Origin: a virus
Length of the DNA: 64,000 nt
Direction: 5' to 3' (one strand)
Virus record (IMG/VR): IMGVR_UViG_3300046501_000460
Location: 1-64,000 of that record
Shown piece after piece: positions 691 through 20,128 of this stretch. The notes beneath the pieces were generated by a model. The model saw nothing but the letters and a program-made list of their open reading frames with translations. It was not told where the DNA came from and did not search any database. Position numbers and translations under genes: made by a program. Every line of letters starts with the position of its first letter. The first letter of the stretch is position 1.

Positions 691-695
691 AAGCA

Positions 696-743: not shown

Positions 744-756
744 GTTTTCTGCCAGG

Positions 757-1505: not shown

Positions 1506-1615
1506 GATGTGTCCTTGCAGGGTTGAAATAGGGAAACCGTAGTGTGGAGAAAGAGTTGTCCGGTGTCAAGTTCTTCTTGGAAATGGCAACTGTGGTATGT
1601 TGCGGCCTACGCAGA

Positions 1616-1644
1616 ATAAAAAGGGCGCGACCGAAGTCGCGCCC
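1616..1644 (-). terminator. Rho-independent terminator after the tail tube gene
   Basis: GGGCGCGAC-TTCG-GTCGCGCCC followed by a T-run on the minus strand. Confidence 0.85.
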
Positions 1645-1672
1645 AACCCTGCTTCCCCACCCCTGAGAACTA

Positions 1673-2920: not shown

Positions 2921-2989
2921 GGTAGTTCTCCGAGGAAATTTCCCCGAAGTCTACCAAGGAAATATTGCCACGTGTAAATAGTTTGCCAC

Positions 2990-4790: not shown

Positions 4791-5275
4791 CAGGCCCCGG
4801 TGACCGGATCGGTCGACAGGCCGACCGCGACCCCGAAGACCTCGACGATGGCGGCCGGCGGCTGCGCCGCGGTGTTGATCAGCGCGTACGCCTTCTGCAG
4901 GCGCGAGCGCATGGCTGACAACACCGCGCCGATATCGCGACCCAGCTGCTCGTACGGGTTGACGTTGCGTGTGAGCTCGGCCTTCTCGTCCTTGATGGTG
5001 AGCGGCGCGAACATCGGCAGGGCGCCCAGACACTGCTGGGCCACGTTGTACGCGGCGTACGCCTGCATCAGGTCGAGGAAGCGATCCTGATCAGCGGTAC
5101 GTACGGTCAGCGCGCTGATCATGGCGAAGTCGGAAATGATCTGGGTGTTCAGGTCGCGCAGATCCTCGCGCAGCCGCGTCGAGTAGATCGAGTTGGTCAG
5201 GACGGCGTCGGGCAGTTCCTGCGCCGAGACGCCAAGTGCGGCGCGCACGCTGTCAGTGGTCACGAGGTCGGTCAT
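4790..5275 (-). CDS. Head-tail adaptor protein
   Basis: 161 aa helical protein beginning MTDLVTTDSVRAALGVS; synteny. Confidence 0.6.
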   Translation of the reverse strand: MTDLVTTDSVRAALGVSAQELPDAVLTNSIYSTRLREDLRDLNTQIISDFAMISALTVRTADQDRFLDLMQAYAAYNVAQQCLGALPMFAPLTIKDEKAELTRNVNPYEQLGRDIGAVLSAMRSRLQKAYALINTAAQPPAAIVEVFGVAVGLSTDPVTGA

Positions 5276-5297
5276 TTATTTCTCCTAGGATGGAGAT

Positions 5298-5316
5298 ATT
5301 GTGGCACAGAAATTGC
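5298..5316 (-). promoter_or_regulatory. Putative phage late promoter (GCAA-N6-TGCCACAAT)
   Basis: Minus strand GCAATTTCTGTGCCACAAT. The same motif recurs before several structural genes. Confidence 0.65.
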
Positions 5317-5322
5317 TTCTGG

Positions 5323-5350
5323 CAAAGAAAAGCCCGCCTCGTGGGCGGGC
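5323..5350 (-). terminator. Rho-independent terminator
   Basis: GCCCGCC stem pair (5332-5338 / 5344-5350) followed by TTTTCTTT on the minus strand. Confidence 0.7.
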
Positions 5351-5370
5351 CTTCTGTGGCGCGTCGTTGG

Positions 5371-5619
5371 TTATTTCGGCGCCGGCGTGAAGTCGACGTA
5401 GAAGGTGTCACCCTGGCGGAAGCGGCCCAGCAGTTCGGGATTGGTCACCGTCATCTGCAGGCTGGCCGACGGCGTCCAGTTCGCGAACGTGTTGTTCTCG
5501 TCGCTGCCGTCCGCCGGATAGCCGTCCGACTTGCAGACGGCGTTGAAGTGCAGAGTCTCGCAGCCGGAGCCCACGGCCACGTAGGAGACCGCCATCTTGG
5601 CGCGCATCACGGCGCTCAT
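5371..5619 (-). CDS. Conserved small phage protein
   Basis: MSAVMRAKM...DENNTFANWTPSASLQMTVTNP...FYVDFTPA; start coupled to the upstream stop. Confidence 0.7.
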   Translation of the reverse strand: MSAVMRAKMAVSYVAVGSGCETLHFNAVCKSDGYPADGSDENNTFANWTPSASLQMTVTNPELLGRFRQGDTFYVDFTPAPK

Positions 5620-5948
5620 TCCTGCACCTCGCCGGCTGCCGGAGCCTGCACGTTCGGGTGTGCCTGCACGGTCGAGACCAGATCGGCTTCGCGCATGCGC
5701 TGCTCGGCCGCGGCTGCACGCGCAAGGCGGTCGGCTTCGTCGGCTTCGTTCTGGGCGTTGATCTTGGCCAGGTCCTTTTCGGTCGGCTCGTCGTTCGGAT
5801 CCGGGCAGCGGATGATGGTGGGCTGCTCGTGGACCCATTTGGTCAGCTCGGCCTTGGTGGCCTCACCCGGCTCGAAGCGGGCGCCCGAGTAGGGATCGAC
5901 CATCGGGAATTCGGTGGTGTTCTTCAGCCAAACACGTTGGTTTGCCAT
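5616..5948 (-). CDS. Hypothetical late protein
   Basis: Start MANQRVWLKN with a GAGGA RBS; preceded by the late promoter motif. Confidence 0.7.
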   Translation of the reverse strand: MANQRVWLKNTTEFPMVDPYSGARFEPGEATKAELTKWVHEQPTIIRCPDPNDEPTEKDLAKINAQNEADEADRLARAAAAEQRMREADLVSTVQAHPNVQAPAAGEVQE

Positions 5949-5977
5949 GGTGGTGGTCCTCAAGTTGTGGAGCGGGT

Positions 5978-6021
5978 ATTGTGGCACGGAAACTGCTAGG
6001 TGGCAATTTGTTTGCTATACT
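5978..6021. promoter_or_regulatory. Back-to-back late-type promoters
   Basis: Minus strand GCAGTTTCCGTGCCACAAT (5996-5978); plus strand GCAATTTGTTTGCTATACT (6003-6021). Confidence 0.6.
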
Positions 6022-6052
6022 AAAGGTTCAATAAACTTCATGAGGTAGGAAA

Positions 6053-6913
6053 ATGCTCTGGATCCCACTCACCGAACCACATCGCCTGCCGGCCGCGTGC
6101 GGCCTGTACCTGATCCGCCATCGCGAGTCTGGCCTGGAATACGTGGGCAAGTCCGTGAACATCCGCTCTCGGGCCTACGATCATCGCCGGGCCCGCACCG
6201 GCGTCACGTACTTGTACCGTGCGATCCGTAAGCACGGCGTCGAGGCATTCGATATTTGCGTGCTGGCGCTTGGCACCGAGGCCGAGATGACGCAACTGGA
6301 GATCGACACGATCGCCGCGCGCGGCACGTTCAACCCAGCCGGCTACAACCAGACGCGTGGCGGGGATGGCATCTCCGGTTATCGGGCGACACCGGAGCAT
6401 CGCGCAGCGATCAGCGCGCGGCAGCTGGGCCGGGCGATCACCGAAGAGACGAAAGCGAAAATGCGAGAGTCGCGGCTGATCAACAACCCGTTCAGAGGGC
6501 GCAGGCACTCGCCGGAAACGTTGGCGAAGATGTCCGCCGCGCTGACTGGGCGGCCTTCCGTCAAATCAGAGGAAGGGATGGAATCGTTCAGAGCGGCGAT
6601 GGCGAAGCGTCGAGGTAAGCCGGGGCATAAGCACACCGATGAAATGCGGCAACATCTGAGCGACGTCAAGAAGGGCGTCCCGAGGCCTGATGGATTTGGA
6701 GATCGCTATCGCGGAGAGAAGAATCCCATGTTCGGAAAACGCTCAGCATTTGCGAAGCAGGTTATAGCCTGGGTGCCGAATAGCCTGACACCGATGACGT
6801 TTGACACAGCTGAACTGGCAGCGATATGGGCAGGCTGCAGTGCTGCGAGCATGAGTGCTTATTGCTCCGGTAAGCAAAGAGCAAAATCTGGAATCCTATT
6901 TGCGTTCGCATGA
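6053..6913 (+). CDS. Free-standing GIY-YIG homing endonuclease with NUMOD3 repeats
   Basis: GLYLIRH...YVGKSVNIRSRAYDH (GIY-YIG variant), GYNQTRGGDG, and repeated H(S/T)xETxAKMS NUMOD3 motifs; antisense within the head cluster. Confidence 0.9.
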   Translation: MLWIPLTEPHRLPAACGLYLIRHRESGLEYVGKSVNIRSRAYDHRRARTGVTYLYRAIRKHGVEAFDICVLALGTEAEMTQLEIDTIAARGTFNPAGYNQTRGGDGISGYRATPEHRAAISARQLGRAITEETKAKMRESRLINNPFRGRRHSPETLAKMSAALTGRPSVKSEEGMESFRAAMAKRRGKPGHKHTDEMRQHLSDVKKGVPRPDGFGDRYRGEKNPMFGKRSAFAKQVIAWVPNSLTPMTFDTAELAAIWAGCSAASMSAYCSGKQRAKSGILFAFA

Positions 6914-6915
6914 AA

Positions 6916-6946
6916 AAATAAAGCGACCTAGAAAGGTCGCTTTATT
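6916..6946. terminator. Bidirectional terminator between the GIY-YIG and capsid genes
   Basis: AATAAAGCGACCT-AGAA-AGGTCGCTTTATT. Confidence 0.8.
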
Positions 6947-6987
6947 AGAAGCAATCTCCTGCTGACAGGAGATCACTAGTTAAATCA

Positions 6988-8211
6988 TTACGAGATTACG
7001 AGTCGGTCGAAAGGAGTCAACTCCAGATCACCAAACGTCCTGTAGCACTCGGCCGACCAGTGCATAACCATCATCTCGCTGCGACGCAGGATGAAGGACT
7101 CGGTCGCCTGGTACTCGGCTTCCGTGTTGCTGACCAGCGTGATCGCCTTCGAAGCGTCCAGGGCCCAGACTTCGCCGGCCGGGATCGGGCCGCCTTCGGC
7201 TGCCGAGTCGACGATGAAGAACTTCACGTCCTGGAACGCCAGGTTGCCGACGCGGGCTTGCGCTTCGACGATCGGCAGGCGCTGGTCGTAAGCCGACAGG
7301 CCCGGGCGGCCGGTGCGTGCCTCGATTTTCAGGTACGTGTCGATATCGCAAGCTGCGTGCGTGATACGGCGCTTCTTGCGGTTGCGTGCCAGGAACTTCA
7401 CCCAGGCCTTGTGCGTCAGCACGCCGCCGGTGGCAGCCGAGTCCAGCGAGGTCGACGTCACGGACGGGACGGCGCCGATCACCATGTCGTTGTCGCCCAT
7501 GAAGATGCTCGACATGTAGGTGTAGACGCGCTGGTCCTTCTCGATCTCGAGGTAGCGCTTGACGGTCATGGCCAGCAGATCGATGGTCTGCGCCTTCATG
7601 GCCTGCTGCGACATCTCGATACCCATGCCGTAGGTCGGCAGGCGGCGGATCCGGTCGGACGTGGTGATCGACAGGATCGTCGGCGTCACGGCCAGCTGGG
7701 CGATGCGCTGCGCCTTGGCCTGGTTCGGACCTTGCGGGCCGGGCGTGGCGTAGTTGATGACCGGCTGTTCGAACGAGTCGCCGCCGATCGAGATGGTCTG
7801 GGCGACCATGTCGTTGAACATCACGGTGTCGGTCTCGCGATCCGGCTGGATGGCCGATTCGACGTACGCGATCAGCGCGGCCGGGAACAGGTTGCGCGAC
7901 TGGGTACCCAGCGGCGAACCCTTCTGCTGCACGTTGGTCGGGCTGCCGGCGTTGATGCCGCTGGTGCCTTCCAGGATCTCGGCCACGGTCGGTGCGCGCA
8001 GGCCGAAGATATTGTCCTTCGGCGCGCCGATGATACCTTCGGAGGCGCAGATCTGGGCGAAGGGCGTGCCCTTGCCCATGTCCGCGTCCTTCTGGTACAG
8101 CGAGTTGATGTACTGCGGGACCGACTTCTTGGCGGTCTTGGCGGCCGCGTAGACGGAAGCGTCGACCGTGACCGGCTGGGCGTTGCCCGATTTATCGATG
8201 AAAAATGCCAT
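6988..8211 (-). CDS. Major capsid protein
   Basis: 407 aa following protease, scaffold and decoration genes; YGMGIEMSQQAM resembles an HK97-fold capsid segment. Confidence 0.8.
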   Translation of the reverse strand: MAFFIDKSGNAQPVTVDASVYAAAKTAKKSVPQYINSLYQKDADMGKGTPFAQICASEGIIGAPKDNIFGLRAPTVAEILEGTSGINAGSPTNVQQKGSPLGTQSRNLFPAALIAYVESAIQPDRETDTVMFNDMVAQTISIGGDSFEQPVINYATPGPQGPNQAKAQRIAQLAVTPTILSITTSDRIRRLPTYGMGIEMSQQAMKAQTIDLLAMTVKRYLEIEKDQRVYTYMSSIFMGDNDMVIGAVPSVTSTSLDSAATGGVLTHKAWVKFLARNRKKRRITHAACDIDTYLKIEARTGRPGLSAYDQRLPIVEAQARVGNLAFQDVKFFIVDSAAEGGPIPAGEVWALDASKAITLVSNTEAEYQATESFILRRSEMMVMHWSAECYRTFGDLELTPFDRLVIS

Positions 8212-8216
8212 TTTAA

Positions 8217-8765
8217 TTAGCTCCCGATGCGCGAGATGACGATGGTGGTGCCGGGGGCGCCGGTACCTGCGGTGCCCAGCGAAACAACGCGCCAGGGATA
8301 AGCTGCCAGTTTTGCTTGCGCGCCGGCTTCGGTCAGCGTGGCCGGGACGGCGCCGATCTGGACGGTCGACTTGAGGACTTTCGGATACGGGTTGGCCATC
8401 GCGGTGCCCTTGGCTTCCTGCGTGCCGGCCACGACGTAGTCGCCGATCGCAAGGTTGCCGGTGCCTTCGGTCGCCTGCAGGCCGTTGGCCGTGACGTAGG
8501 CTTCCTTCTCTTCCTTCAGGCCGCCGACCGACCAGCCGTCGGACAGGGCTTGCTCGACCGAGGTGATGATGCCTTCGATCATGTCGCCGGCGGTGGCCAC
8601 GTCGAACTGCGATTCGCCGACCAGCTTGACGATCTTGCCCTCGTCGAGGTAGGTCATGGAGCCGCCGGTACCCGGGACGCCAGCCGTCGCACGGGCAGAA
8701 CCCAGGCGGACGGTCATGACGTCAGGGGTCGGACCCGTCGGCGTGATGTAGTGTGCTTTGGACAT
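8217..8765 (-). CDS. Head decoration protein
   Basis: 182 aa, Gly/Thr-rich, directly upstream of the capsid gene. Confidence 0.6.
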   Translation of the reverse strand: MSKAHYITPTGPTPDVMTVRLGSARATAGVPGTGGSMTYLDEGKIVKLVGESQFDVATAGDMIEGIITSVEQALSDGWSVGGLKEEKEAYVTANGLQATEGTGNLAIGDYVVAGTQEAKGTAMANPYPKVLKSTVQIGAVPATLTEAGAQAKLAAYPWRVVSLGTAGTGAPGTTIVISRIGS

Positions 8766-8776
8766 GGTGATCCCCT

Positions 8777-9385
8777 TTATTTAACGAGTGCGTTCTGCAT
8801 GGTCGCGGCGAGCATCGGATCGAGCTCGGCCTTGACGGTCGATTTGTCTTCCGGCGTGGCCGCAGCTGCGACGCCGCCGACGCGGAACTGGGTCTTGAAC
8901 ACGCCGTCGATGCGCGCATGCTCAGCGACGATGTTGGTGGCGGTATAGCCTGCAGCGATGTCGGCCGAGCCGCCCAGCGCCACCAGCTTCTCCCCGATCA
9001 CTGCGCGCAGCGCGCCGACGAGACCGTCGACAGCGGCAGCCTGCGCCTTGAAACCCTCGACCTCGACCCGGGCCGCGATCAGGGCAGCATCCTTTTCGGT
9101 CAACTGCGCTTGCAGATGCGCGACCAGCTCGGACGGCGCGGCGGCAGCGGCCGGCGATGCGATGCCGGTACCTTCGGCCGGCGGCGCGGCCGGCGTGGCA
9201 GCGCCGGTAGCAGCGGCTGCTGCAGCAGCGGCAGCGGCGGCATCGTCAGCGCCCGGCGCGGCGGCCGGATCGGCTGCAGCCGGATTACCCGGCGGATTGG
9301 CTTCCGGCGCGGTCGCCAGCGAGGCGATCACTTCCGGGGTAGCTCCGGTCGCCAAGGCGGCGAGTTGTGCGGCGTTGAGTTTCAT
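8777..9385 (-). CDS. Capsid scaffold protein
   Basis: Ala/Pro-rich low-complexity region plus a coiled coil, between protease and decoration genes. Confidence 0.6.
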   Translation of the reverse strand: MKLNAAQLAALATGATPEVIASLATAPEANPPGNPAAADPAAAPGADDAAAAAAAAAAATGAATPAAPPAEGTGIASPAAAAAPSELVAHLQAQLTEKDAALIAARVEVEGFKAQAAAVDGLVGALRAVIGEKLVALGGSADIAAGYTATNIVAEHARIDGVFKTQFRVGGVAAAATPEDKSTVKAELDPMLAATMQNALVK

Positions 9386-9435
9386 TTGGGCATCCTTTTG
9401 AACTGTGGCAATTATTAGGCACGATTTTTGCTATG

Positions 9436-10236
9436 TCAACGATTTTTCGCTGCGGCAACAGCTTGGTCGCGCGTTTGCACCTTATCGACCAGGCCGGCGG
9501 TCACTGCCCGCTTGCCCATAAAGGTCTTGCCCTGCCCCATCCGCGCGCTGACCTCGTCGGTGGTGACGCCGCGCACCCTTGCGACGTGGGCTTCGAACAT
9601 GGCGTTCACGTCATTCACCTGGGACTGCATCTCGGCCTTGGCGGCGTCGGACAGCGGCTCGTACGGATTGCCCTGCATCTTGAATTCGCCGGAGCGGATG
9701 ACGGTCTTGTCGACGCCCTTCTCGGCAAGCTGTCGGTGGATCGAGGTGTGGATCATCACGGCGCCGATCGAGCCGGCAATGGCCATCGGGTCGATCGAGA
9801 TGCCGTCCGCCGCGCTGGCGGCCCAGTACGCGGCGCTCGCGCCGGTCGTGCTGATGTGGGAGTGCACGGGCTTGATCTTCTTGATCTGGCTGATGTACTC
9901 AGCCAGCGGCGGTGCGCCGGCGGCGGCGCCACCGCCCGAGCCGACGTCTAGGAGGATCGAATTGACGTCCGGATCGAGCGCCGCCTCGGTCAGCGCCGAG
10001 GTGATGTCGTCGTAGCCGGTACAGCCGAAGAAGGCCATCCAGCCAGCCTGGCCCATGATGAGCGAGCCCTCGATCGGCACGACTGCAAGGTTGCCCTGCT
10101 TCTGCCACATCTTGGGCATGTCGGGTTGCGTGGCCTCGCCAGCGAGCACGCGCCTGGCCATGTCCTGCGCGCTGGCCTGCGCGCGCACCACGACTTCATA
10201 GCTCTCCTCGGAGCCGGCCCAGAGGATGTGCGTCAT
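9436..10236 (-). CDS. Head maturation protease, S49 (SppA-like)
   Basis: LDVGSGGG, ASAAYWAASAAD, GSIGAV and SGEFK motifs of peptidase S49. Confidence 0.92.
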   Translation of the reverse strand: MTHILWAGSEESYEVVVRAQASAQDMARRVLAGEATQPDMPKMWQKQGNLAVVPIEGSLIMGQAGWMAFFGCTGYDDITSALTEAALDPDVNSILLDVGSGGGAAAGAPPLAEYISQIKKIKPVHSHISTTGASAAYWAASAADGISIDPMAIAGSIGAVMIHTSIHRQLAEKGVDKTVIRSGEFKMQGNPYEPLSDAAKAEMQSQVNDVNAMFEAHVARVRGVTTDEVSARMGQGKTFMGKRAVTAGLVDKVQTRDQAVAAAKNR

Positions 10237-11813
10237 TTCTGCGGTCCTTTCGGTTTGCTGGGCGCATCGGACTTCTGGCCTTGCTGGCCAGCGCCCTGCT
10301 TGTTGCCCATCGGATTTTCGTTGCCCTTCGACGTGCCGTCGCCCTGCTGGCCCGCCATGCCGCCGGCCTGTGCCGCGGCGCCACCGCCAGCGAAGAAGCC
10401 GGTGCCCGACAGCGGCGTGAAGCCGGTCGGCGTCATCTCGCCGGTCAGCTCCAGCGCGGCCTCGTCGTCGGTGAGGAACCCAAGGCTGAGCTGCTCGAGC
10501 ACGCGCGCCTGCTTCATGGCCTTGAACGACTCAAGCTCGAGCGTCGGGCGCAGGTTGATGTCGTCGAACAGGAACTCGACGGTCACGTCCATGCCGAACA
10601 GGCGCACGGCCAGCGTCATCGCCTTGGAGATCAGCTCCTGCAGCTTCAGGCGCACCATGCCGTTGGCGCTGAGCATGAAGATCATGGTCTCGGTGCTGGC
10701 CACGTTCTGCGAGCCCGAACCATGGCCGAGGACCGACGGCAGCACCTTGGCGCCGGTCGAAACCTTCTCGTCGTAGATCGACTTGACGGTCTCGAATTCG
10801 CCCGCGTTCGCGCCGTTCATCTCCACCGTCTTGACGGTGAAAAAGTCGAAGTGCACGATCGCATCTTCCGGGTTCATCGTGTTGATGACCGAGTTGATCG
10901 ACGCGATCGTGTCGTTCATGTACTGCTTTGCCTTCTCCGTGTCGTTCAGGACTTCCGGCGGCAAGCGGTCGCGCAGCTTCTCCTCGTCGATCTCGACGTC
11001 GTAGCGCGGAAATACCGCGCGCTTACAGATCCGGCGCATGTCGTTGGCGAAGTCGGCGGCTGCCAGCACGGGCTGCACGGCCGCTTCCAGCGGGCTGATC
11101 GCGTACGCGGTCAGCAGATCCTGGTCGAGCGCGGTGTAGAAGAAGGTCGGGATGTCGAGGTCGATGTACTCGCCGCCGATCAGCTGCTGCGGCTTGATCG
11201 CCTGGGTGTTCTTGTCCTCGACGAACACCAGCTGCGAGACGGGCACGGGCTGGAGTTTGTAGGGCAGGCGGGTCTTGTCCAGCACCAGTTCCAGCGCGGC
11301 GCCGCCCTCGATGATGATTTCCTTGCCCAGGGCTTCGCACACCGAGCGCAGGCTGGACACCTGCGAGAAGCCCGACGCGAAGTCCGGCATGAAATCGAAC
11401 TGGCGCAGGATGCTGTTGGCGAGCGCAGTGGCTTCGCGGTTGAAGCTGCCGTCCATGTTGCGGGCCCTGACGGTCCACTTTTCCGGAATGCCCACGCGCA
11501 GGAAGGAGCTGACCGCGGTTGACAGGTCTGGTGTCAGGCGCGCCAGCGTGCGGATCGCGCCGGGCGTGTTCGCCGCCTGGCGCGCGGCATTCGCGATGTC
11601 CGTCGTCATCGCGCCGCTGTCCTTCTTGGTCAGCGGCGAGCTGACGTACGTCGTGTTGGGCACATAGCCCGGCTGCGTGACCTGCTTGTTCGGCGTCTTC
11701 GGCGTCTGTACCAGCGGCATTGCCGGCTGGCCGGTGACGGGCGTCAGCGTGCCGCCGCCCTTGGGCGCGGTGCCGGTCAGCTTGGCAAAGAGTTGTCGGG
11801 CGGCATTAAGCAT
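10233..11813 (-). CDS. Portal protein
   Basis: About 526 aa between terminase and protease. The likely start ATG 11813 (MLNAARQL) lies 7 nt after the -10 of the late promoter. Confidence 0.75.
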   Translation of the reverse strand: MLNAARQLFAKLTGTAPKGGGTLTPVTGQPAMPLVQTPKTPNKQVTQPGYVPNTTYVSSPLTKKDSGAMTTDIANAARQAANTPGAIRTLARLTPDLSTAVSSFLRVGIPEKWTVRARNMDGSFNREATALANSILRQFDFMPDFASGFSQVSSLRSVCEALGKEIIIEGGAALELVLDKTRLPYKLQPVPVSQLVFVEDKNTQAIKPQQLIGGEYIDLDIPTFFYTALDQDLLTAYAISPLEAAVQPVLAAADFANDMRRICKRAVFPRYDVEIDEEKLRDRLPPEVLNDTEKAKQYMNDTIASINSVINTMNPEDAIVHFDFFTVKTVEMNGANAGEFETVKSIYDEKVSTGAKVLPSVLGHGSGSQNVASTETMIFMLSANGMVRLKLQELISKAMTLAVRLFGMDVTVEFLFDDINLRPTLELESFKAMKQARVLEQLSLGFLTDDEAALELTGEMTPTGFTPLSGTGFFAGGGAAAQAGGMAGQQGDGTSKGNENPMGNKQGAGQQGQKSDAPSKPKGPQK

Positions 11814-11819
11814 GCCGCG

Positions 11820-11838
11820 AGTATGGCACGGAAATTGC
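11820..11838 (-). promoter_or_regulatory. Putative late promoter for the portal gene
   Basis: GCAATTTCCGTGCCATACT on the minus strand. Confidence 0.65.
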
Positions 11839-11862
11839 CTCACGACAATCAGGAAATTGCGC

Positions 11863-11890
11863 CAAAGAAAAAGCCTGCTTTCGCAGGCTT
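11863..11890 (-). terminator. Rho-independent terminator after the terminase cluster
   Basis: AAGCCTGC-GAAA-GCAGGCTT followed by a T-rich run on the minus strand. Confidence 0.75.
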
Positions 11891-12013
11891 CGTCTCGGCC
11901 GGGAACCCCCAACCCTTACTACCGGACGTTGGCACCCGGTGGCAGCTTGTGGGACGCGGCCGCAGCCACAGGCCGACGCCTGCCTCTGACGCCCACGCGC
12001 TGGCCGCAGCTTA

Positions 12014-12313
12014 TCAGAGTTCCAGTCCGGAAAGCAAGCCGTCGACCTGCTCCCTGAGCGCGCGGACACGCTTGGTCTGCCTGTGGATCGCATCGGCCAG
12101 ATCCACCTGGCCGCCGGCAGTCTTCCCACCGACGCCGCCAGACGTGGGCGTTGGCTGGGTGACGGGCACGAGGCGCTGTGCCAGCTGCGCGACGCCCTCT
12201 ATCAGGTACGACAAGGTCTGGTCGAGGTCTTGCAGGGCAGCGGGGATTTGCGGCGTGCGCGGCTGGCTGGCGATTCCGACACATTTTTCCATATCGATGG
12301 GGCGGTGGTTCAT
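12014..12313 (-). CDS. Hypothetical protein
   Basis: 99 aa with an AGGAG RBS; coiled-coil character. Confidence 0.6.
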   Translation of the reverse strand: MNHRPIDMEKCVGIASQPRTPQIPAALQDLDQTLSYLIEGVAQLAQRLVPVTQPTPTSGGVGGKTAGGQVDLADAIHRQTKRVRALREQVDGLLSGLEL

Positions 12314-12364
12314 GGTGACTCCTGTAGGGTGGGAGCCGCCATGATAGCAAACAATTTCCAGATG

Positions 12365-14059
12365 TCAATGCTTGACCTTGAACGTCGAGAATAGCGGCAC
12401 GCCGATGAATGGGATGTCGCGCGACGCGGTCTCCATCAGCTGCGCCGCTACGTGCAGGTAGCCCAGCGAGTGCATGAAGTGGTCGTTGCCGTCCTTCGAC
12501 TTCTGCCAGGTGTAGACGATCTCCTGGTGCTTGTCGAATTCCTGCACCCGCTTCATGTCCAGCATGTGCAGCGACCAGAGCCGGTCGGTATGGTCGTGCA
12601 TCGGCTCCCACAGCAGCTGGCGCGACTTGTACAGGGCCATCACCTCGTCGAAGTTGACGTCGCGCATGATCTGCGCCTGGTTGATCGGCAGCTTGCCCTC
12701 GGCCTTGTTCTCGTCGACCATGACCAGCTTGAAGGTGGCCAGCAGCCGGCTTTGCGCGTAGACGCCGCCGTACAGGTTCTTGTCCTGGCGCTGCATCTGG
12801 TGCACGAGGTTCGTCTCGGGGAAGGCGTCGACCACGGTGATGAGCACGCGCCACAGCACCGCAAGTTGGCGCTTCCTCTCGGCCAGCTTGGCAAGTGGGC
12901 ACTGCTCCCGGTAGGTCACCAGCAGCTTGCCGTCGAGCGTGCGCCGGCCGACCGTGATGTGGCAGGTCTGGCCCACGTCGATGCCCATGGCGTGCAGCTC
13001 GCTCGAGCGCAGCGGGAACGGCGATCTGCACTCCTCGATGTCGTTCTCGGACAGCTGCGCATTGCCGGCGTCCGCGGTCTCGCCCAGCGCCTGGTTGACG
13101 AATTCGGCCCACGTCTTGTACTTCGTGATCTCCAGGATCAGCGACGGGATCGTGACGACGTTGGGCACTTCGAACGGCGTGACGTAATAGCCGATCGCCT
13201 CGTAGCTGTCGTCCGGGTTCTCGCAGATCCATTTCCGGTACGGCGGCGACAGGTCCGGCTCGCCGTCGCACTGCGGGCAGTGCAGGCGCGCCTCGCGCCA
13301 GCGCAGCGTGTCGATGTTGTGCTTGTTGATGTCCTTGAATTCCCCGGCGTAGTCGGGGATCTTGACGTCCTTGTGGAAGTTCGGCACGAACAGATGGCCG
13401 CAGTGCACGCATGTGCACGCGCGGCGCATGCGCCGGGCCGCTTTCATCTCCAGCGCGATGCCGCGGCCTTCAGTCGTTGGCGTGCCGAAGCGCCGCGTCA
13501 GCTTCCATTTGCTGTGCTTGATGCGGGACTGGAACTGGGCCAGCGTGTCCGGATCCGAGCGGTCGACCTCGTCGTGGATCAGCATGTCGGCCGGCACCGA
13601 CAGCGCGGTCGTCGAGCCCGAGCAGCCGCGCATGTACAGCAGGCTGGTGCCGATCGACTTGATGCTGGCGTTGTCCAGGTCCTTGTCGACCGATTCACGC
13701 AAGTCGGGCGACTCGTCGATGATGGGGTCCAGACGCGTCTTCGTGAAATTGGTCGCGTCGTTCGCGAACGGCAGCGTCAGGATGACCGAGAAGTATGGCA
13801 TCACGCGGCTCACCGCCAGCGCGTAGCGCGCCATACACTCCGACAGGCCGACCTGTGCGCACTTCTGCACGTACAGCGTCCTGCTGGTGTCGGACAGGAT
13901 GTCCTTCTGGAACTCGTGGTCGTAGAACGAGAAGCGGTCGCCCTTGAGGTAGGTCTTCTCCTCCAGGTAGCGCACGACATCGCCCAGGTCGTAGCTGTTG
14001 AAAAGCGCCTGCTCAAGCCGCTTGAGGTGCTCGACCAGCGCGGGATCGGAATGGCTCAT
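12365..14059 (-). CDS. terL: Terminase large subunit (lambda gpA-like)
   Basis: KCAQVGLSE Walker A-like motif, LIHDEVD Walker B, GTPT, CxxC pairs, MGIDVG nuclease aspartate and C-terminal NDHFMH. Confidence 0.92.
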   Translation of the reverse strand: MSHSDPALVEHLKRLEQALFNSYDLGDVVRYLEEKTYLKGDRFSFYDHEFQKDILSDTSRTLYVQKCAQVGLSECMARYALAVSRVMPYFSVILTLPFANDATNFTKTRLDPIIDESPDLRESVDKDLDNASIKSIGTSLLYMRGCSGSTTALSVPADMLIHDEVDRSDPDTLAQFQSRIKHSKWKLTRRFGTPTTEGRGIALEMKAARRMRRACTCVHCGHLFVPNFHKDVKIPDYAGEFKDINKHNIDTLRWREARLHCPQCDGEPDLSPPYRKWICENPDDSYEAIGYYVTPFEVPNVVTIPSLILEITKYKTWAEFVNQALGETADAGNAQLSENDIEECRSPFPLRSSELHAMGIDVGQTCHITVGRRTLDGKLLVTYREQCPLAKLAERKRQLAVLWRVLITVVDAFPETNLVHQMQRQDKNLYGGVYAQSRLLATFKLVMVDENKAEGKLPINQAQIMRDVNFDEVMALYKSRQLLWEPMHDHTDRLWSLHMLDMKRVQEFDKHQEIVYTWQKSKDGNDHFMHSLGYLHVAAQLMETASRDIPFIGVPLFSTFKVKH

Positions 14060-14138
14060 TGCAGGAATCCGGCGATAGGGCCACTGAAAATGATGGCCAG
14101 ATTGAACAGGATGAAGATCGTCCAGAATTTCTTGTGGC

Positions 14139-14393
14139 TCATGAGCCTGCTCCCCAGCTCAGCAGGTGGCGCTGCTCGTCAGGGATGCGCACGCCGACAG
14201 CACCGGTGATCACCTTTTCGACCCATCGATCGTTCTCGACGAGTGGCACGCCGTTACCGTCAGTGAGATAGATGCACGCCTCGCCGCGCTCCAGATCGAC
14301 CCAGACGCACGTGCCTCGCATTAGCGGCACGCCATCGATCAGCACGTCGGTGATGTGCACGGCGGCCGGGTGCTTGTTGGCTTCAATCCTCAT
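14139..14393 (-). CDS. Hypothetical protein
   Basis: 84 aa, overlapping its neighbouring genes. Confidence 0.55.
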   Translation of the reverse strand: MRIEANKHPAAVHITDVLIDGVPLMRGTCVWVDLERGEACIYLTDGNGVPLVENDRWVEKVITGAVGVRIPDEQRHLLSWGAGS

Positions 14394-14817
14394 TCCGGGC
14401 CTCCTCGGCTTTTTCTTCCTTCAGGAACTCGCCGTACATGTCGAAAAACTTGCGTTTCGACTCCAGCGGCAGGTCCTCCAGCACCTTGATGAAGGCCGAC
14501 TCGAAGCGCTTCAGGCGCTCCGCGCTGTAGACGATCTTCTGCTGCTTGACGATCTTCTCCAGCATGCCAGAGACCGAGTTGAACACCTGGGCGCGCTGGT
14601 TCGCCGGCGTGCCGTTGTCGTCCTGCACCGATGCCAGCAGGATCGTGCCGGCGCGGTATTGCAAGCCCAGCTCATCCGCAAGGTTGAGCTTGGTCAGGTC
14701 GAGGTTCAGCTTCTTGTCCAGCCGCATGCGCAGCGCCAGCATCTGGGAATCGTCCAAGCCTTCCAGCGGATCGACCTTGTCGGTTTGGCCCTTGAGCGAG
14801 TAATCCTTGAGCGACAT
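14383..14817 (-). CDS. Putative terminase small subunit
   Basis: 144 aa helical protein upstream of terL; call rests on synteny only. Confidence 0.55.
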   Translation of the reverse strand: MSLKDYSLKGQTDKVDPLEGLDDSQMLALRMRLDKKLNLDLTKLNLADELGLQYRAGTILLASVQDDNGTPANQRAQVFNSVSGMLEKIVKQQKIVYSAERLKRFESAFIKVLEDLPLESKRKFFDMYGEFLKEEKAEEARNED

Positions 14818-14819
14818 GG

Positions 14820-14975
14820 TCAGTTCCCGAAAATGAGGGCCATGAGGGCGTCGTGTACCTGCAGTAGGCCGTAGACGACGTTGGCCAGCAGCCAGGCGAG
14901 GACCATGACAGCGATCGTGGCGCCGGCGATGAGCAGCATCGCGCCGCTGTTCTTGGGAGTGCGCGGCGTGCTCAT
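14820..14975 (-). CDS. Small membrane protein
   Basis: MSTPRTPKNSGAMLLIAGATIAVMVLAWLLANVVYGLL..., with a hydrophobic segment; start coupled to the upstream stop. Confidence 0.5.
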   Translation of the reverse strand: MSTPRTPKNSGAMLLIAGATIAVMVLAWLLANVVYGLLQVHDALMALIFGN

Positions 14976-15259
14976 GCTTTGCTCCGGATCCGGTAGATGG
15001 TGCGCTCGCTGCAGCCGGCGGCCGCGGCGGCTTCCTTGACGCTCAGGGTCGTGGCGACGCGGCGCCGGTGCTCGGCGCGGGCGGCGTTCAGTTCCTTGGT
15101 GCTGGGCTTGGCCGGGATCGCTTCACGGGCGATGCCCATGCGCTTGAGGACGCGGCAGATGTACGACTCGTGGGTGTCCAGCAGCTGCGCGAGTTCACGG
15201 TTGGTGATCTCGCGGCGGACGATGCGGTCGATGTAGGGTTTGAGGTCGTCGCTTAACAT
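14972..15259 (-). CDS. Double helix-turn-helix DNA-binding protein
   Basis: TNRELAQLLDTHESYICRVL and SVKEAAAAAGCSERTIYRI HTH-like motifs. Confidence 0.75.
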   Translation of the reverse strand: MLSDDLKPYIDRIVRREITNRELAQLLDTHESYICRVLKRMGIAREAIPAKPSTKELNAARAEHRRRVATTLSVKEAAAAAGCSERTIYRIRSKA

Positions 15260-15299
15260 GGCAAAAAGTATGCCATGAAGCATTCTTTTTGCCTAGCAA

Positions 15300-15460
15300 C
15301 TTCTGTTCCAGCGTCAATTTCGGCGGAAATTTGCCGAAAATTGCAAAAATTTCTGAAAAATTAGTGAAAAATTGCAAAAAGTTTAAAAAATTGAGGGAAA
15401 TTTTTGGGGACCCAGGAGCGCGCGGCCACCTGCCGCCCCGCCGAAAACTACCCCCGTCAG
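15300..15460. other. Putative packaging/terminus (cos-like) region with phased A-tracts
   Basis: Non-coding strand-switch point upstream of the terminase genes; A/T tracts about every 10 bp, followed by a GC-rich block. Confidence 0.5.
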
Positions 15461-15596
15461 AATCGCTCAGATCGCGCCATACGGCACGACACAATCCGCG
15501 TGCGCCAGCGTACACAGAAATAACAAGCGCAACCTGCGCCATTCTGGCGCGTCCTAGGGCCATTGCATAAAAGCAACAGTGTCGATGCCGACGTCC

Positions 15597-15709
15597 AGGT
15601 CCAACCGCATTTAACACTTTGGTCCAACCAATTACGCTGTCTGGTCTGGCCAAAGTGGTCTGACCAATTGTGCGGTCTGGTCAGACCAGGTTGCCCACCT
15701 GCCAGACCA
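15597..15709. repeat. Array of about 6 TGGTCn(G/A)ACCA palindromic boxes
   Basis: Copies at 15597-15607, 15620-15630, 15642-15652, 15656-15666, 15678-15688 and 15699-15709 (degenerate). Confidence 0.8.
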
Positions 15710-15857
15710 ATAGATTTTAACTATACAGGTAATTAAAAAATACAATGAGCTCTAGGATCACAGTTTTGATATGATTCTTACGTCGTCTGGCAAACGACAC
15801 GGCGCCGCAGTCATGGCGCATCACTCTCAACCGTTACACACACGTATAGGACACACC

Positions 15858-16634
15858 ATGAAAACCGCACAATCCCGCACCGTCGCCATGTCCGACATGT
15901 TCCGCGCTCTGGCCGGCTGCCCGGAAGCGCAATTCGATATGATCGCTTGCACGGTCTACAGCGCTGCCTACTCCATCATGCTGGCGGGCAACAAAACCCA
16001 ATTCAACAAGCTGGAAGCGGACGCGGCCATGTACGGCACTAGCACGGACGCGAGCAAGACGATCCGCGCCCTGTTCGGCATCAAGGCGATGAACGCCGTA
16101 TCGAAGCACTTCCAGCGCACCTACTACGCTGTATCCGAAGCACTGCGCCAGTGCGGCATTCCGGCCGACATGCAAAAGGACTTGCCGCAGGGCAAGGCGA
16201 ACGGTGCCGCGCGTCATGCGATCCTTGATCCGCTGGCGCAAGACTACGCTGACGCTTTCACGGCCGTATTCACGTCCGTGATGATTATGCCGACCAAAAC
16301 CGACGAGGAGCGCACGGCAGCGGCGGCGGATCGTGAGGCGAAGAAAGCCGAGAAAGAAGCCGAGGCGGCGAAGCTGGCCAAAGAAGCCGAACGTGAAGAG
16401 CGCGCGAAAATCGACGCTGAAGTCAAGGCGCGCGTTGACCGTGCCACCGAAGCGACCGAAAAGGCGCTGGAGCTGGCCACCGCGCCCGATACCATGGCGC
16501 GCACCGTCGCCGACATGCTCATGTCCGGCACGCTGTCGGCCGATCTGGAAGCACTCCTGATCGAAGCGGCGCAGGCGCGGGAAACGGCTCTGTTACTGGC
16601 GCGCGCCGCCAGCGCCGAACCCGTCCCAGCCTGA
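15858..16634 (+). CDS. First early gene; hypothetical protein with a charged coiled-coil C-terminus
   Basis: AGGA RBS before ATG 15858; E/K/A-rich helix in the C-terminal half. Confidence 0.8.
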   Translation: MKTAQSRTVAMSDMFRALAGCPEAQFDMIACTVYSAAYSIMLAGNKTQFNKLEADAAMYGTSTDASKTIRALFGIKAMNAVSKHFQRTYYAVSEALRQCGIPADMQKDLPQGKANGAARHAILDPLAQDYADAFTAVFTSVMIMPTKTDEERTAAAADREAKKAEKEAEAAKLAKEAEREERAKIDAEVKARVDRATEATEKALELATAPDTMARTVADMLMSGTLSADLEALLIEAAQARETALLLARAASAEPVPA

Positions 16635-16639
16635 TCCCT

Positions 16640-17340
16640 CGCGTCCCTACAGGGACGCTGTCTAGTGCGGCGCGTGCGCCGTACCAGACAGCGTTACCCT
16701 GCGCACGTCCGTACATAACGATACGGAACCCCGTGCGCGCTCTTTCGGTCTCGAATCGTCGGCCCAGCTGGCCGATGTACCCCGAGATTGATTGGGAACC
16801 GTCCTTTAACAATGTGCGCCCATGTGTTCCGCGAATCGTGAATTCGTTGCGGACTGTTCTTTGACATCGTCCTTTCGGTGGCTCGTTCGGTTTGCTTCGC
16901 CCTATACCGTCCCGCGCAGTCATGGATGCCGTCAGTAGAAAACGCACAGTCGCCGCCAGTTCGGCGACTGGCGCGATTGCAAAGAAAACCCGTACGACGC
17001 GACGTAGTGCGCCGGGATACGGGTAATCGGTTCGCATGCTGGAGATTGCCGGATAGATACCGGCCGCATCAAAGGCATGGCCAGCGAAAACGGCGCTTGC
17101 CGCAACACGGGAATGGTGTGTTGCGGATCTGGGCCAGATAAGCCGGAACCGGATGAGATCGTTGCAATCGCGTAGGCAAACACAAAATCCGGGTTTAGCA
17201 GGCCCGGCCGCGATGAGCGGAATTGCTTTGGCAAGCGATAGCGCCACCGTCCCGGCGCGCAATAGGGACAACGGTAATACCCTGCGCACTGTCCTTGTCG
17301 GTTGATACGGGCAGGCACAGTGCGCAGTCATTACCGAGGA
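16640..17340 (+). ncRNA. Putative large structured non-coding RNA or leader with boxA-like motifs
   Basis: More than 12 adjacent hairpins, a 12-bp long-range stem (16971-16982 / 17162-17173), no credible ORF, and boxA-like motifs at 16738, 16800, 16855 and 16868. Confidence 0.7.
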
Positions 17341-17347
17341 GGACCGC

Positions 17348-17638
17348 ATGAGAAAAGTCTTGACGTTGCCGATTAAGACGGCCCTGTCTGGCACGCTGGC
17401 GCAGTATGCAAAAGCATTGCCTAAACTGCATGAAAACCTGATCCGCGAACCGGTGATCGAGCAGCGCTCGAAGCTGTTCGATCCGGAGATTGCGCCAGTG
17501 GCGCCGCGCCGGAAGATGAAGAAACGCCACGTCGTCGAATCGACCGGGCTGGCCATGCCAGCACGGCGCGGCGGCGAACTGAATCGGCCGGACAAGTCCG
17601 AGCCACGTACAAACCTGACATTCAACTGGGAGAGATAA
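17348..17638 (+). CDS. Hypothetical basic protein
   Basis: Strong GAGGAGG RBS immediately after the last hairpin of the structured region. Confidence 0.65.
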   Translation: MRKVLTLPIKTALSGTLAQYAKALPKLHENLIREPVIEQRSKLFDPEIAPVAPRRKMKKRHVVESTGLAMPARRGGELNRPDKSEPRTNLTFNWER

Positions 17639-17642
17639 CAAA

Positions 17643-17894
17643 ATGAAAACCATCTACGAATCTGCAATCGAAACGTCCGCTGAATATGAGGGCCAGCTGT
17701 GCGACGTAATGCGCGAGTATGGCGCCGATCTGGCCGAACTGACGCGCCGCCTGCACATGCGGCAGGCAGCAATCGCCGGTGAGCAGGACTGGAAAAGCTT
17801 CCCTGACGGAAGCTCGGAAGTCCGGATTACCGAGCTGGACGGCACCAGCCTTGATTACACGGCCTACATTCGCAAGGTCAACCTGGTCTGCTAG
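17643..17894 (+). CDS. Hypothetical protein
   Basis: GGAG RBS, 83 aa. Confidence 0.65.
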   Translation: MKTIYESAIETSAEYEGQLCDVMREYGADLAELTRRLHMRQAAIAGEQDWKSFPDGSSEVRITELDGTSLDYTAYIRKVNLVC

Positions 17895-17950
17895 AGCTTC
17901 AATGTGAGCGCGTCGGCGCTCACGTGGACGTTCTAACAACAAGGAAGACG

Positions 17951-18199
17951 ATGAAAACCAATCTCCGCACGATCCGTATCGGCCATGGCGCCTACAGCGG
18001 CACCAACGCCCTGAAACACGTCACCAGCAAGTCGGCCGCAGTCCGCGAGCTGGTCCAGCGCGGCGCCGCGCCGGCCGAGGCGCGCCACGTCGTAACGCTG
18101 GCGGCCAACAAGCCGAACGGCTATGCCTGCCTCACGATCAATCACGACGTGGTCGAGATCTTCGCCATGAATACCGCCTGGGCATGGGGGCAGGCATGA
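17951..18199 (+). CDS. Hypothetical protein
   Basis: AAGGAAG RBS; high GC at third codon positions. Confidence 0.65.
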   Translation: MKTNLRTIRIGHGAYSGTNALKHVTSKSAAVRELVQRGAAPAEARHVVTLAANKPNGYACLTINHDVVEIFAMNTAWAWGQA

Positions 18200-18434
18200 A
18201 CTTCGCTCGATCCCTGCTCAGCCTCGTCACGATCGTCGTGCTGGTGGCCATCGACAACCAGGCCAGCGGCCCCGACGGCCTGATCAACTACGGCGACCTG
18301 ATGCGCCTCGTGGTCTGGTCCCTGATCGCCTGCAACGCTGTCACCATCTACGAGTATGTGCGCAAGGTGGCGCATGACTGAATTCGACCTGATGCAGCTG
18401 GCCATGGTCGCCGCCGGCGCCATGGCCCTGATCG

Positions 18435-19172
18435 TCATTGCATGGCCGGAGTCCAGCGCGAGCCGTCAGGCAGGTACGCAAACACCCGCTGCTCTGCCGG
18501 ATCGAACCTAAATTCCGTGCAGCCCGCAAGGGTCGCGGCCAGGCGCACCCTGTAGTCGTCACACACGTGGATCGCGACCGGGATGTCGATCCACTTATCC
18601 TTGACCCAGTGCCACTCGCGACCCTCGATAGCCTTGGGCCGAGACGGCTTCTTGAAGTCCGTCTTGACGTTGACAGGCTTGCGCACCGCGCCGGTCTCCA
18701 GCAGATACTTGGCGCGCAGGTCGCGCTCGAATGCCTCCACGCGCTCGACATACACCATGTCGCGCCGGTAAAACTCGGCAGCCATCATCTCCCAGTGTGC
18801 CCGGCAGGCGCCCGGTGAGATGTGACCCATGTTGCTCAGCGGATGGAAGTACAGCGGACCCTTCTTGATCTCACGGTAACGCAGGCGCTTCACGCGCGCC
18901 GGGTAGAGGTTGCCACGCGAGAAGTCCAGGGGATCGGTCCCCAGCTGGACAACTGGAAACTCGGGCCAGTTGCCGTAATACAGGCACCACGCGATGTCGA
19001 CACCGCGCAAGCGTTGGCCATTGAACAGCGTGACCGCGTGATTCGCATCCATGCTTTTCACAGGCATCGCGGCACCCGATGCAAGCTTGCGGTAGAGGTG
19101 CGGACCCTCTAATACAAAAAAGACATGTACGTCCTCTGGAGGGAGGATCGCGTTGAGGTGAGTGTTGGCCAT
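18435..19172 (-). CDS. Protein with a degenerate HNH-like domain
   Basis: IAWCLYYGNWPEFPVVQLGTDPLDFSRGNL aligns to the HNH pattern HRLAW...GEWP..IDHING...DNR..NL but lacks the catalytic His and Asn. Confidence 0.6.
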   Translation of the reverse strand: MANTHLNAILPPEDVHVFFVLEGPHLYRKLASGAAMPVKSMDANHAVTLFNGQRLRGVDIAWCLYYGNWPEFPVVQLGTDPLDFSRGNLYPARVKRLRYREIKKGPLYFHPLSNMGHISPGACRAHWEMMAAEFYRRDMVYVERVEAFERDLRAKYLLETGAVRKPVNVKTDFKKPSRPKAIEGREWHWVKDKWIDIPVAIHVCDDYRVRLAATLAGCTEFRFDPAEQRVFAYLPDGSRWTPAMQ

Positions 19173-19708
19173 AATTACCCTTTTCGTTGTCAGGTGGGAA
19201 ACATCAGGAGCACAGTCCGCTCTTGAAGTTACAAATAATAGCACAGAATCCAAGGTGTGCAAGCGGGTGCTTCCCTCTAGACACACCTAAAAAGGTAACT
19301 ACTTATACTGTGATGACATATCCTGATAGGCTTTTTGAAAATTTTGGCTAGAGCGTTTTGGTGTTGAGTCCGTTCTGTTCCCTTATTTTGGTCCTTTTTT
19401 CAAAACGCGTTTTTGGGGGGGCCTTTTATAATTTCTGAAGTGCCGTCCAGAGCACAGAAAATACCTAGGTAAGTCACAGGAATTTAAGTTTTCTGTATAG
19501 TAAGTTTAAAGTGAAGTGTTCTCTTGCCCTATTTCGGATGTGTGCTTCTTTGGACTTCTCGTGCACACTTTTTAAGCAACGTCCGCAAACTGTCACCTTA
19601 TGTGACCTCTCCCCATACTTACTGTGCGCCAGTACTCTTATTCCACGTGCTTGTACGATTCTGGTGGGGGGTACACGCGAATTCACAGCAAAAACTCATT
19701 CTTACGCC
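19173..19708. other. AT-rich divergent intergenic region (candidate origin or control region)
   Basis: About 535 bp of markedly lower GC with T-runs; AGCACAG repeated at 19209, 19240 and 19451. Confidence 0.45.
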
Positions 19709-20128
19709 ATGAAATCTTTCTTCCCGTTCAAGAATCCGACCTTGAAAGAAGTACAACAACGTGAAATTTGTGAAACCGAGCTTGCGCTGCACGAAGCCCG
19801 CATCGCCAAGGATCGTGCCGACGCCACCGTCAGCATGTTCGAAACCCGCCTCGAAAGGCTCCGACGTGAACACTTTGGAAATTGACGCCGTGCTAACAAC
19901 TGCCTACCACGCGGCCGCCACGCTGGCCGCTGCCGAGGTCAAGAAGCACCTGCACCGCTTCGACCTGCGCCGGCATCCGGTCAGCTGCCACGGCGGCTGC
20001 CTGCTCGTGGGCAGCCGCCCCTTCTTCGAGTTCACCGGTGCCCATCCGCTGCATCACGCCATCCGCGAGGCTGGGCAGTTCATCGACGTGCTGCCCATGC
20101 CCGTCCGACGGCTTGTGGGGACCTACCT

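Follow-up and report, generated by a model that had tools for sequence, protein, structure and literature searches.

The window analyzed here (64,000 nt) covers the first 64 kb of an IMG/VR record of 87,574 bp (IMGVR_UViG_3300046501_000460, rated 100% complete) from an uncultured soil phage. In its first small rightward operon, a 713-nt gap (16635–17347) separates two genes. We show that this gap is a real and conserved structured RNA of ~700 nt, made up of several domains. The first-pass annotation, made from the letters alone, had proposed a novel large phage noncoding RNA or cis-acting leader at this place, and that proposal is supported by covariation among relatives, by folding better than that of shuffled sequences, and by the lack of a match in Rfam. 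The strong evidence is the covariation; thermodynamics alone is not strong.

Covariation and folding of the gap

Relatives were gathered from IMG/VR using the flanking proteins and a conserved DNA pattern. This yielded six uncultured phages of 85–93 kb (L002, L003, L004, L005, L006 and L023), and the gap lies directly 3′ of the homologous gene in 6/6 with sequence there. The aligned gap segments measure 689–743 nt, except for that of L003, which is 477 nt long because the central domain is missing altogether. Within the gap, the relatives are 58–83% identical to the window at the nucleotide level, compared to 67–76% in the upstream gene; in L002, the central and 3′ domains are 87–93% identical, versus 76% for the neighboring protein gene.

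We folded the alignment of all seven gap sequences (A5) with RNAalifold and obtained 174 consensus pairs, 87 of them with compensatory change. Pairs changed on both sides number 89/174, compared to 11–25 in six slid controls. Standard pairs fill 92.5% of the 1138 cells, versus 32.9–42.7% when the 3′ partners are slid by 1–3 columns, and the covariation score falls from 0.412 to 0.050–0.085 upon sliding. Column shuffles reached any of five measures in 0/500 cases. One caveat here is that the consensus structure was derived from the same sequences as those used for the covariation count. Not every helix is informative: helices 14 and 17 are invariant, and helix 24 varies on one side only. Helices 5–9 are the weakest (82–93% paired), and a 4-bp "helix 1" in the RNAalifold output is only 78.6% paired.

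Folding energies were compared with those of shuffled sequences, and the gap folds better. The whole region has z scores of –4.81 (plus strand) and –4.74 (minus strand), with 0/20 shuffles each, and three sub-domains give –4.14, –4.28 and –4.15 (0/200 shuffles each). Three coding controls of 227 nt give –1.44, +0.02 and +0.04. However, when minimum free energy was scanned across the whole genome in sliding 200-nt windows with correction for GC content, just 1/11 windows of the region proved exceptional (start 16651, rank 11/1748). The remaining ten ranked 128–1169, a result that runs counter to the thermodynamic argument, and hence the case rests on covariation rather than on energy.

Which strand carries the structure is clear from the mismatches that are tolerated. 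In the plus-strand structure there are 100 G-U cells versus 19 A-C cells, in line with the earlier remark that G-U pairs are tolerated on this strand, whereas the structure predicted for the minus strand has 47 G-U and 34 A-C. The consensus fold is worth –169.6 kcal/mol on the plus strand and –136.2 kcal/mol on the reverse complement. These data place the RNA on the operon (plus) strand and exclude a strand-symmetric DNA element. More generally, one can ask whether the gap acts as DNA, as a replication origin, a packaging site or a cluster of protein-binding palindromes. Its location ~1–1.5 kb from the divergent control region beside the terminase genes would suit such a role, the folding z-scores are alike on both strands, and several of the arms are perfect palindromes. 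However, cruciforms or dimer sites would be strand-symmetric, contrary to the G-U and A-C counts and the advantage of 33 kcal/mol for the plus strand; nested long-range helices make no sense for duplex DNA; and no direct-repeat (iteron) family of more than two copies was found. We therefore consider a DNA-level element very improbable.

Nor does the gap carry a gene. GC content by codon position is flat inside it (0.50–0.68 in all three phases, window starts 16650–17150), compared to 0.74–0.90 in one phase of the flanking genes. Substitutions lack 3-periodicity, with rates of 0.227, 0.224 and 0.203 at the three positions, versus 0.167, 0.140 and 0.302 in the upstream gene. Open reading frames (ORFs) do cross the region, among them one of 417 aa on the minus strand (16519–17772) and several of 87–128 aa, as would be expected of coding DNA, a decayed gene or a self-splicing intron. 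However, the open frames differ among the relatives, the 417-aa ORF and three others in or overlapping the gap have no Pfam match at E ≤ 0.1, and two shorter ORFs within it belong to no PHROG family. Thus, the gap is noncoding, the view that it holds no credible ORF stands, and a protein-coding or intronic origin is barely credible. Group I and group II introns were considered separately and rejected: no model matched at E ≤ 10, the genes on either side are intact and keep their stop and start, and L002 and L003 have extra ORFs after the RNA.

A search of the whole 64-kb window with Rfam 15 at gathering thresholds gave no matches. The families covered include GOLLD, ROOL, OLE, HEARO, raiA, 6S, tmRNA, RNase P, group I/II introns and riboswitches. 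Even at E ≤ 10 with permissive filters, the ten matches in 16400–17600 fall far below threshold; the best (26.7 versus 50 bits) lies in the next gene, and no large-RNA family is among them. Neither a tRNA nor a tmRNA was detected. In the literature we found no paper describing this RNA. The candidates from the screen of intergenic regions in IMG/VR 3.0, an earlier release, by Fremin et al. (2023) span only 29–151 nt (PMC10690425).

How widespread is the RNA? In each of five genomes rated 100% complete (this phage and four relatives), model R1 gives a strong match (E 1e-38 to 1e-41), and second copies were found in none of the five, with only two weak extras (E 0.026 and 0.44). Among GenBank phages, there was no match by blastn, nor by tblastn with the upstream protein. 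The first viral pattern scan returned 19 stretches, of which six are real (five already known, plus L023), while scans of metagenome contigs (two stretches) and genome contigs (three stretches) returned only chance matches around the pattern. A loose 5′-domain pattern picked up no relative among the at least 119 matches listed, and a central-domain pattern picked up the five known carriers and one chance match. A profile-based protein scan adds only L038, a contig that ends inside the gene. Nevertheless, the family is predicted to be larger than the seven members analyzed, because the upstream protein has 27 homolog clusters, none of them named and many on Logan or ENA contigs.

Architecture of the RNA

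All six stems named in the first-pass annotation are present, either where it had put them or 1–3 nt away. The elements of the consensus fold are as follows, with the number of pairs changed on both sides given for the helices.

16652–16697, plus strand: near-perfect hairpin of ~20 bp (helix 2, arms 16655–16673/16676–16694; 13/20 pairs changed on both sides, 92.1% paired)
16700–16739, plus strand: two-part hairpin with the conserved loop ACAnAACGnU (helices 3 and 4, 1/6 and 3/5; loop invariant in A5)
16753–16781, plus strand: variable hairpin just 5′ of the boxA-like motif, in the place that boxB has in rRNA operon (rrn) leaders (helix 5, 5/9; 82.5% paired)
16801–16811, plus strand: boxA-like motif GTCCTTTAACA in a single-stranded stretch (10/11 to GYTCTTTAANA; unpaired in the consensus)
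16815–16918, plus strand: domain 1, nested helices 6–9 (2/4, 3/5, 2/6 and 5/7), the least secure part (83–93% paired)
16947–16970, plus strand: hairpin at the entrance of the central domain (helix 10, 16947–16955/16962–16970; 8/10, 96.7% paired)
16971–17173, plus strand: domain 2, multi-branched, helices 11–20, closed by 16971–16979/17165–17173 (absent in L003 in alignments A1 and A5; z = –4.14)
17189–17258, plus strand: domain 3a, four short hairpins with the invariant loops UAG, GAUGA and UUGG (helices 21–24; 3/8, 3/4, 2/7 and 0/5)
17272–17336, plus strand: domain 3b, long terminal hairpin with the conserved apical sequence GGUUGNUACG (helices 25 and 26; 2/7 and 13/16)

The long-range helix said to close a multi-branched domain is recovered in the consensus as 16971–16979 with 17165–17173; a repeat finder extends it to 16972–16985 with 17159–17172 (14 nt, 93% complementary). 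Within domain 2, pairs are changed on both sides in 4/9 of helix 11, 4/6 of helix 16 and 6/9 of helix 20, with 92–100% paired, and the hairpin 17100–17108/17118–17126 has 6/9. Domain 3a is 96–100% paired and is the most conserved block of the RNA. The segment 17185–17336 has a folding z of –4.28, and helix 26 spans 17283–17324. Among all the helices, support is best for helices 2 and 10, the long-range closing helix 11, the hairpin 17100–17126 and helix 26. As described earlier, the terminal stem (17272–17336) runs up to the ribosome-binding site of the next gene, stopping 1 nt short of GAGGAGG (17338–17344); domain 3b ends 1–3 nt 5′ of that site in 7/7 phages. The first hairpin, 16652–16697, lies just 3′ of a stop codon, and could be a processing site of the RNase III type or a stabilizer of the mRNA 3′ end.

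Conservation extends to nucleotides that do not pair. Unpaired strings are conserved in 7/7 phages, domain 1 contains the conserved strings GTGAATTCGT (16838–16847) and CCCTATACC (16900–16908), and the linker between domains 1 and 2 is conserved as well. The order and spacing of all elements are the same in every relative.

These observations bear on the idea that the gap is a loose string of independent hairpins (mRNA stabilizers, pause or processing sites, protein-binding stem-loops) with no joint fold or function. The three 5′-most hairpins are local, with variable sequences, domain 2 has been lost in L003, only one window is exceptional in the GC-corrected scan, and no pseudoknot of at least 5 bp was found among the unpaired alignment columns, all of which would be expected of such a string. 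On the other hand, compensated long-range helices enclose others (16971–16979/17165–17173, 17028–17033/17146–17151 and the nested helices of 16815–16918). Given these helices, the unpaired strings kept in all seven phages and the constant order and spacing, we regard a mere series of hairpins as unlikely.

L003 (IMGVR_UViG_3300049459_000229) carries, at its positions 5094–5112, a natural deletion of what corresponds to window 16947–17185, with domains 1 and 3 kept. This genome shows the central domain to be dispensable.

The boxA-like motif and models for the RNA

The gap belongs to an operon with the following order: a promoter-like site, a gene for 258 aa, the gap itself, genes for 96, 83, 91 and 65 aa, and then a convergent gene for 283 aa. 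The features that matter here are listed below.

15717–15746, plus strand: promoter-like site TTAACT-18-TACAAT from a consensus scan, putative start of the RNA-carrying transcript
15858–16634, plus strand: first operon gene, 258 aa, with a conserved ATG and AGGA ribosome-binding site (alignment A7); the longest ORF begins at 15771; GC content at third codon positions 0.74
17338–17638, plus strand: GAGGAGG ribosome-binding site (17338–17344) and 96-aa gene (ATG at 17348), encoding a small basic protein

The RNA had been placed at the head of the early operon. It does belong to the first rightward operon, but one gene (15858–16634) precedes it. A scan of the plus strand of the gap for sigma-70-like promoters (at least 8/12) found none in 6/7 phages and one weak site in L004, and no terminator-like site was found on the plus strand in 15000–20000. 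Upstream, the TACAAT hexamer is identical in 5/7 aligned relatives (A7) and is preceded by TGGTCnnACCA palindromes. Given the lack of a promoter or terminator in the gap and this conserved promoter-like element upstream, we take the RNA to be part of a polycistronic early transcript, probably co-transcribed from a putative operator-controlled promoter at 15717–15746. The proposal that it would be among the first transcripts after injection draws on gene order and the promoter-like site only. Transcription is probably carried out by host RNA polymerase, as a non-exhaustive scan of 14 large ORFs turned up no RNA-polymerase family (three could be placed in no family, and one resembled PHROGs of unknown function only).

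In E. coli, the boxA consensus is UGCUCUUUAACA (PMC13753749). Functional boxA of gammaproteobacteria conforms to GYTCTTTAANA, and mutations at positions 4 and 6 abolish its function at suhB (PMC5725501). NusB/NusE contact nucleotides 1–8 of boxA (PMC3177189). Compared to the 11-nt consensus, which is gammaproteobacterial and may not be that of the host, the phage motif scores 10/11 in the window and in 5/6 relatives, and 9/11 in L003. It occupies the same aligned, unpaired position in 7/7 phages, and C4 and T6 are intact in 6/7. Across the two strands of the 87.6-kb genome (175 kb), there are only six sites of at least 10/11, two of them on the plus strand of the gap, where ∼0.024 would be expected. 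The second lies at 16856–16866, within domain 1, and is seen in this phage only. The setting of the motif also fits, as it is single-stranded, has a promoter-like site upstream and would be followed in the presumed transcript by ∼540 nt of untranslated RNA. Elsewhere, boxA upstream of long untranslated RNAs (16S rRNA, CRISPR arrays) raises their transcription (PMC7862264, PMC13753749), and an added boxA increased pre-crRNA about tenfold in Legionella (PMC7862264, which cites Stringer et al. 2020). On the strength of its sequence and position, we lean slightly toward the motif being a working Nus-factor site.

One model that brings these data together is as follows. Host RNA polymerase would start near 15717–15746, transcribe the 258-aa gene and enter the untranslated stretch. 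There, the boxA-like motif, with a hairpin ahead of it as in rrn leaders, would recruit host NusB/S10 and other Nus factors, and the polymerase would turn Rho-resistant while making ∼540 nt of untranslated, co-transcriptionally folding RNA. A ribosome-free stretch of this length would otherwise invite Rho, which the boxA at the entrance and the dense structure would prevent. The folded body, in which domains 1 and 3 flank an optional central domain 2, may then act in cis on the small early genes downstream, by way of translation or stability. We favor a cis role because the terminal helix constantly adjoins the next ribosome-binding site. Taken as a whole, an ornate RNA internal to the operon, using host Nus factors against Rho and acting in cis on the next genes, seems to us to have about an even chance of being right.

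Several observations weigh against this model. With regard to the motif, a perfect 11/11 match occurs in none of the seven phages. Against the E. coli 12-mer (again, a consensus that may not be the host's) the score is 9–10/12, with 5–6/8 in the part contacted by NusB, and the best-conserved part in the phages is the 3′ half, CUUUAACAA, rather than the NusB-contacted 5′ half. Moreover, the exact 9-mer CTTTAACAA is not unusual in the window (three matches at ≤1 mismatch versus 2.41 expected). With regard to antitermination, only ∼1 kb of small genes precedes the convergent gene, leaving little beyond the RNA itself to antiterminate. With regard to a cis role, no conserved pairing that occludes the ribosome-binding site was found in the seven phages, and no cis switch is visible; the best partners of the anti-Shine-Dalgarno sequence fall at A5 columns 266–313 in 3/7 phages (230–276 in L003) and elsewhere in the others, with no consistent partner. 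The many invariant loop and junction nucleotides and the optional domain are explained no less well by a self-standing ornate RNA. Finally, A5 consists of few sequences, seven in all, from ∼4–5 lineages.

In two relatives, the gene adjoining the RNA is a different one. In L002 (5450–5675) and L003 (5283–5745), an additional small ORF follows the RNA and separates it from the homolog of the 96-aa gene.

Alternatively, the product might be a stable ornate RNA of ∼500–600 nt that acts in trans, freed at its end hairpins (16652–16697 and 17272–17336) by RNase III or a similar enzyme. Such an RNA could be a ribozyme, could scaffold a protein of the phage or the host, or could divert a host defense as a decoy, and boxA would serve only to get the RNA made, as it does for rRNA. 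Several features would suit this alternative, including the invariant loop and junction nucleotides, the three separately folding domains with long-range helices, and the higher conservation of the central and 3′ domains relative to the adjacent protein gene in close relatives (87–93% versus 76% in L002). The ∼20-bp near-perfect hairpin after the stop codon and the ∼25-bp composite terminal hairpin match the length criterion for substrates of double-stranded RNases. Furthermore, boxA followed by a long structured RNA within an operon copies the rrn design (PMC13753749, PMC10250234). However, the 5′ and 3′ flanks do not form a leader–trailer helix: RNAduplex energies were no better than those of shuffles in 7/7 phages (fraction of shuffles at least as good, 0.15–0.95). 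In addition, a trans-acting RNA would have no need of strict adjacency to the next ribosome-binding site, and the family is limited to one small phage clade. Hence, we see action in trans as possible, although we lean against it. A bolder version, which we consider rather unlikely, envisions a new class of large, three-domain ornate RNA in uncultured 85–93-kb rhizosphere siphophages whose first early transcript mimics the rRNA operon, with Rho-proofing by a host-type boxA and release at hairpins of an RNA of ∼0.5–0.6 kb that would act in trans during cell takeover, as a ribozyme, an RNA–protein machine or an anti-defense decoy.

Comparison with known systems and the surrounding genome

To our knowledge, very few conserved RNAs of bacteria or phages combine a length above 500 nt with an intricate fold, and each of those found so far has proved to be a ribozyme, the core of a ribonucleoprotein or an unexplained ornate RNA. 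The RNA described here thus offers a testable case of the means by which a phage has a long untranslated RNA produced in a Rho-bearing host, and of the purpose it serves. Its covariation is unusually clear, and it lies in the first early operon beside what appears to be a borrowed rRNA antitermination signal; what limits its usefulness is that the host is uncultured and the clade of carriers small. What appears new is the folded body, which belongs to no known family, whereas a boxA-protected, untranslated structured RNA would be known in kind.

RNAs of the GOLLD, ROOL and OLE type are located near tRNAs. Like them, the phage RNA exceeds 500 nt, has many helices and conserved junctions, is phage-borne and lacks an assigned function (PMC12286853). 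Unlike them, it matches no Rfam model, sits in an operon beside a ribosome-binding site, and has another host range or clade with a handful of members.

A close parallel for the motif is the rrn leader and spacer, with boxB hairpin, boxA and boxC, acted upon by NusA/B/E/G, SuhB and S4. In both cases, a single-stranded boxA or boxA-like string (10/11 in the phage) lies behind a hairpin and is followed by a long untranslated structured RNA in a unit of host polymerase, predicted as such for the phage (PMC13753749, PMC5725501, PMC7862264). However, the phage RNA is not rRNA and matches no family, it has no leader–trailer helix, its boxA-like motif is imperfect and best conserved outside the NusB-contacted half, and no conserved boxC was identified. 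The boxA elements of CRISPR arrays and suhB follow the same logic, in that a long ribosome-free RNA needing protection from Rho has boxA upstream (PMC7862264, PMC13753749). Unlike these, the element here is phage-borne, lies in the middle of a protein-coding operon and precedes an ornate fold instead of repeats.

Two phage systems are also similar in part. Like lambda nut and HK022 put, the RNA lies behind the first gene of the early operon, has a boxA-like element and hairpins, and is followed by a gene for a small, basic, poorly ordered protein. Both nutR and putR lie behind cro. However, the RNA is ten times larger, no downstream plus-strand terminator that it might overcome was found, and no arginine-rich N-terminus like that of lambda N was recognized, by eye, in the 96-aa protein. 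As with the early RNase III hairpins of T7-type phages, long hairpins lie between early genes, here at both ends of the RNA. Those of T7 are single hairpins, whereas here they flank ∼500 nt of conserved multi-branched structure, and cleavage would be by analogy.

Apart from the RNA, the genes of the operon are largely anonymous. None of the 258-, 96-, 83-, 91-, 65- and 283-aa products belongs to a Pfam or PHROG family, and their Atlas matches are unnamed viral clusters only. An AlphaFold 2 model of the 258-aa protein (predicted local distance difference test score, pLDDT, 83) consists of helices only, one of them 59 residues long, and has no Foldseek match in the PDB at E ≤ 0.001. The Atlas model of the 96-aa protein is of low confidence (pLDDT 0.38).

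The gene map, drawn from GC content by codon position, begins with minus-strand virion genes (1–15283), including those for a tail tube protein (1673–2920) and a gpA-type large terminase (12365–14059). Next comes a divergent control region of low GC content (15283–15771), followed by plus-strand genes, the later of which encode an SNF2 helicase, primase, family-A DNA polymerase, ligase, thymidylate synthase and SbcCD. By terminase, the closest cultured phages are Vibrio SHOU24, Pseudomonas PMBT3 and Caulobacter Seuss, at only ∼29% identity. The sequencing runs that contain this DNA are rhizosphere metagenomes only; no RNA data set was listed for the stretch.

Within the control region, a run of TGGTCnnACCA palindromes (15590–15715) lies directly 5′ of the promoter-like site, and at least two copies are kept in the relatives (A7). 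The neighboring minus-strand gene at 14972–15283 encodes a helix-turn-helix protein (Pfam HTH_23, E 1.3e-7) that might repress the early promoter. An AT-rich part (15300–15400, GC ∼0.3–0.4) with repeated GAAAAATT-like words could contain a late leftward promoter, an origin or a packaging site. A second gene-free region of low GC content (0.41–0.47) extends from 19290 to 19760 and separates the minus-strand 283-aa gene from the main block of plus-strand genes. Promoter-like sites occur in it at 19313–19342 and 19473–19501, and it probably serves as another divergent promoter region. According to IMG/VR, the record belongs to the class with direct terminal repeats. Its first and last 50–400 bases differ from each other; the repeat must therefore measure under 50 bases or have been trimmed.

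In the GC-corrected scan, the most stable 200-nt windows of the genome are at 40151–40551, 41601–41751 and 65451–65501, the last being genome coordinates beyond the window (residual z –2.4 to –3.2). The stable stretch at 65.45 kb has a GC content of only 49% and could represent a further structured element or else a terminator.

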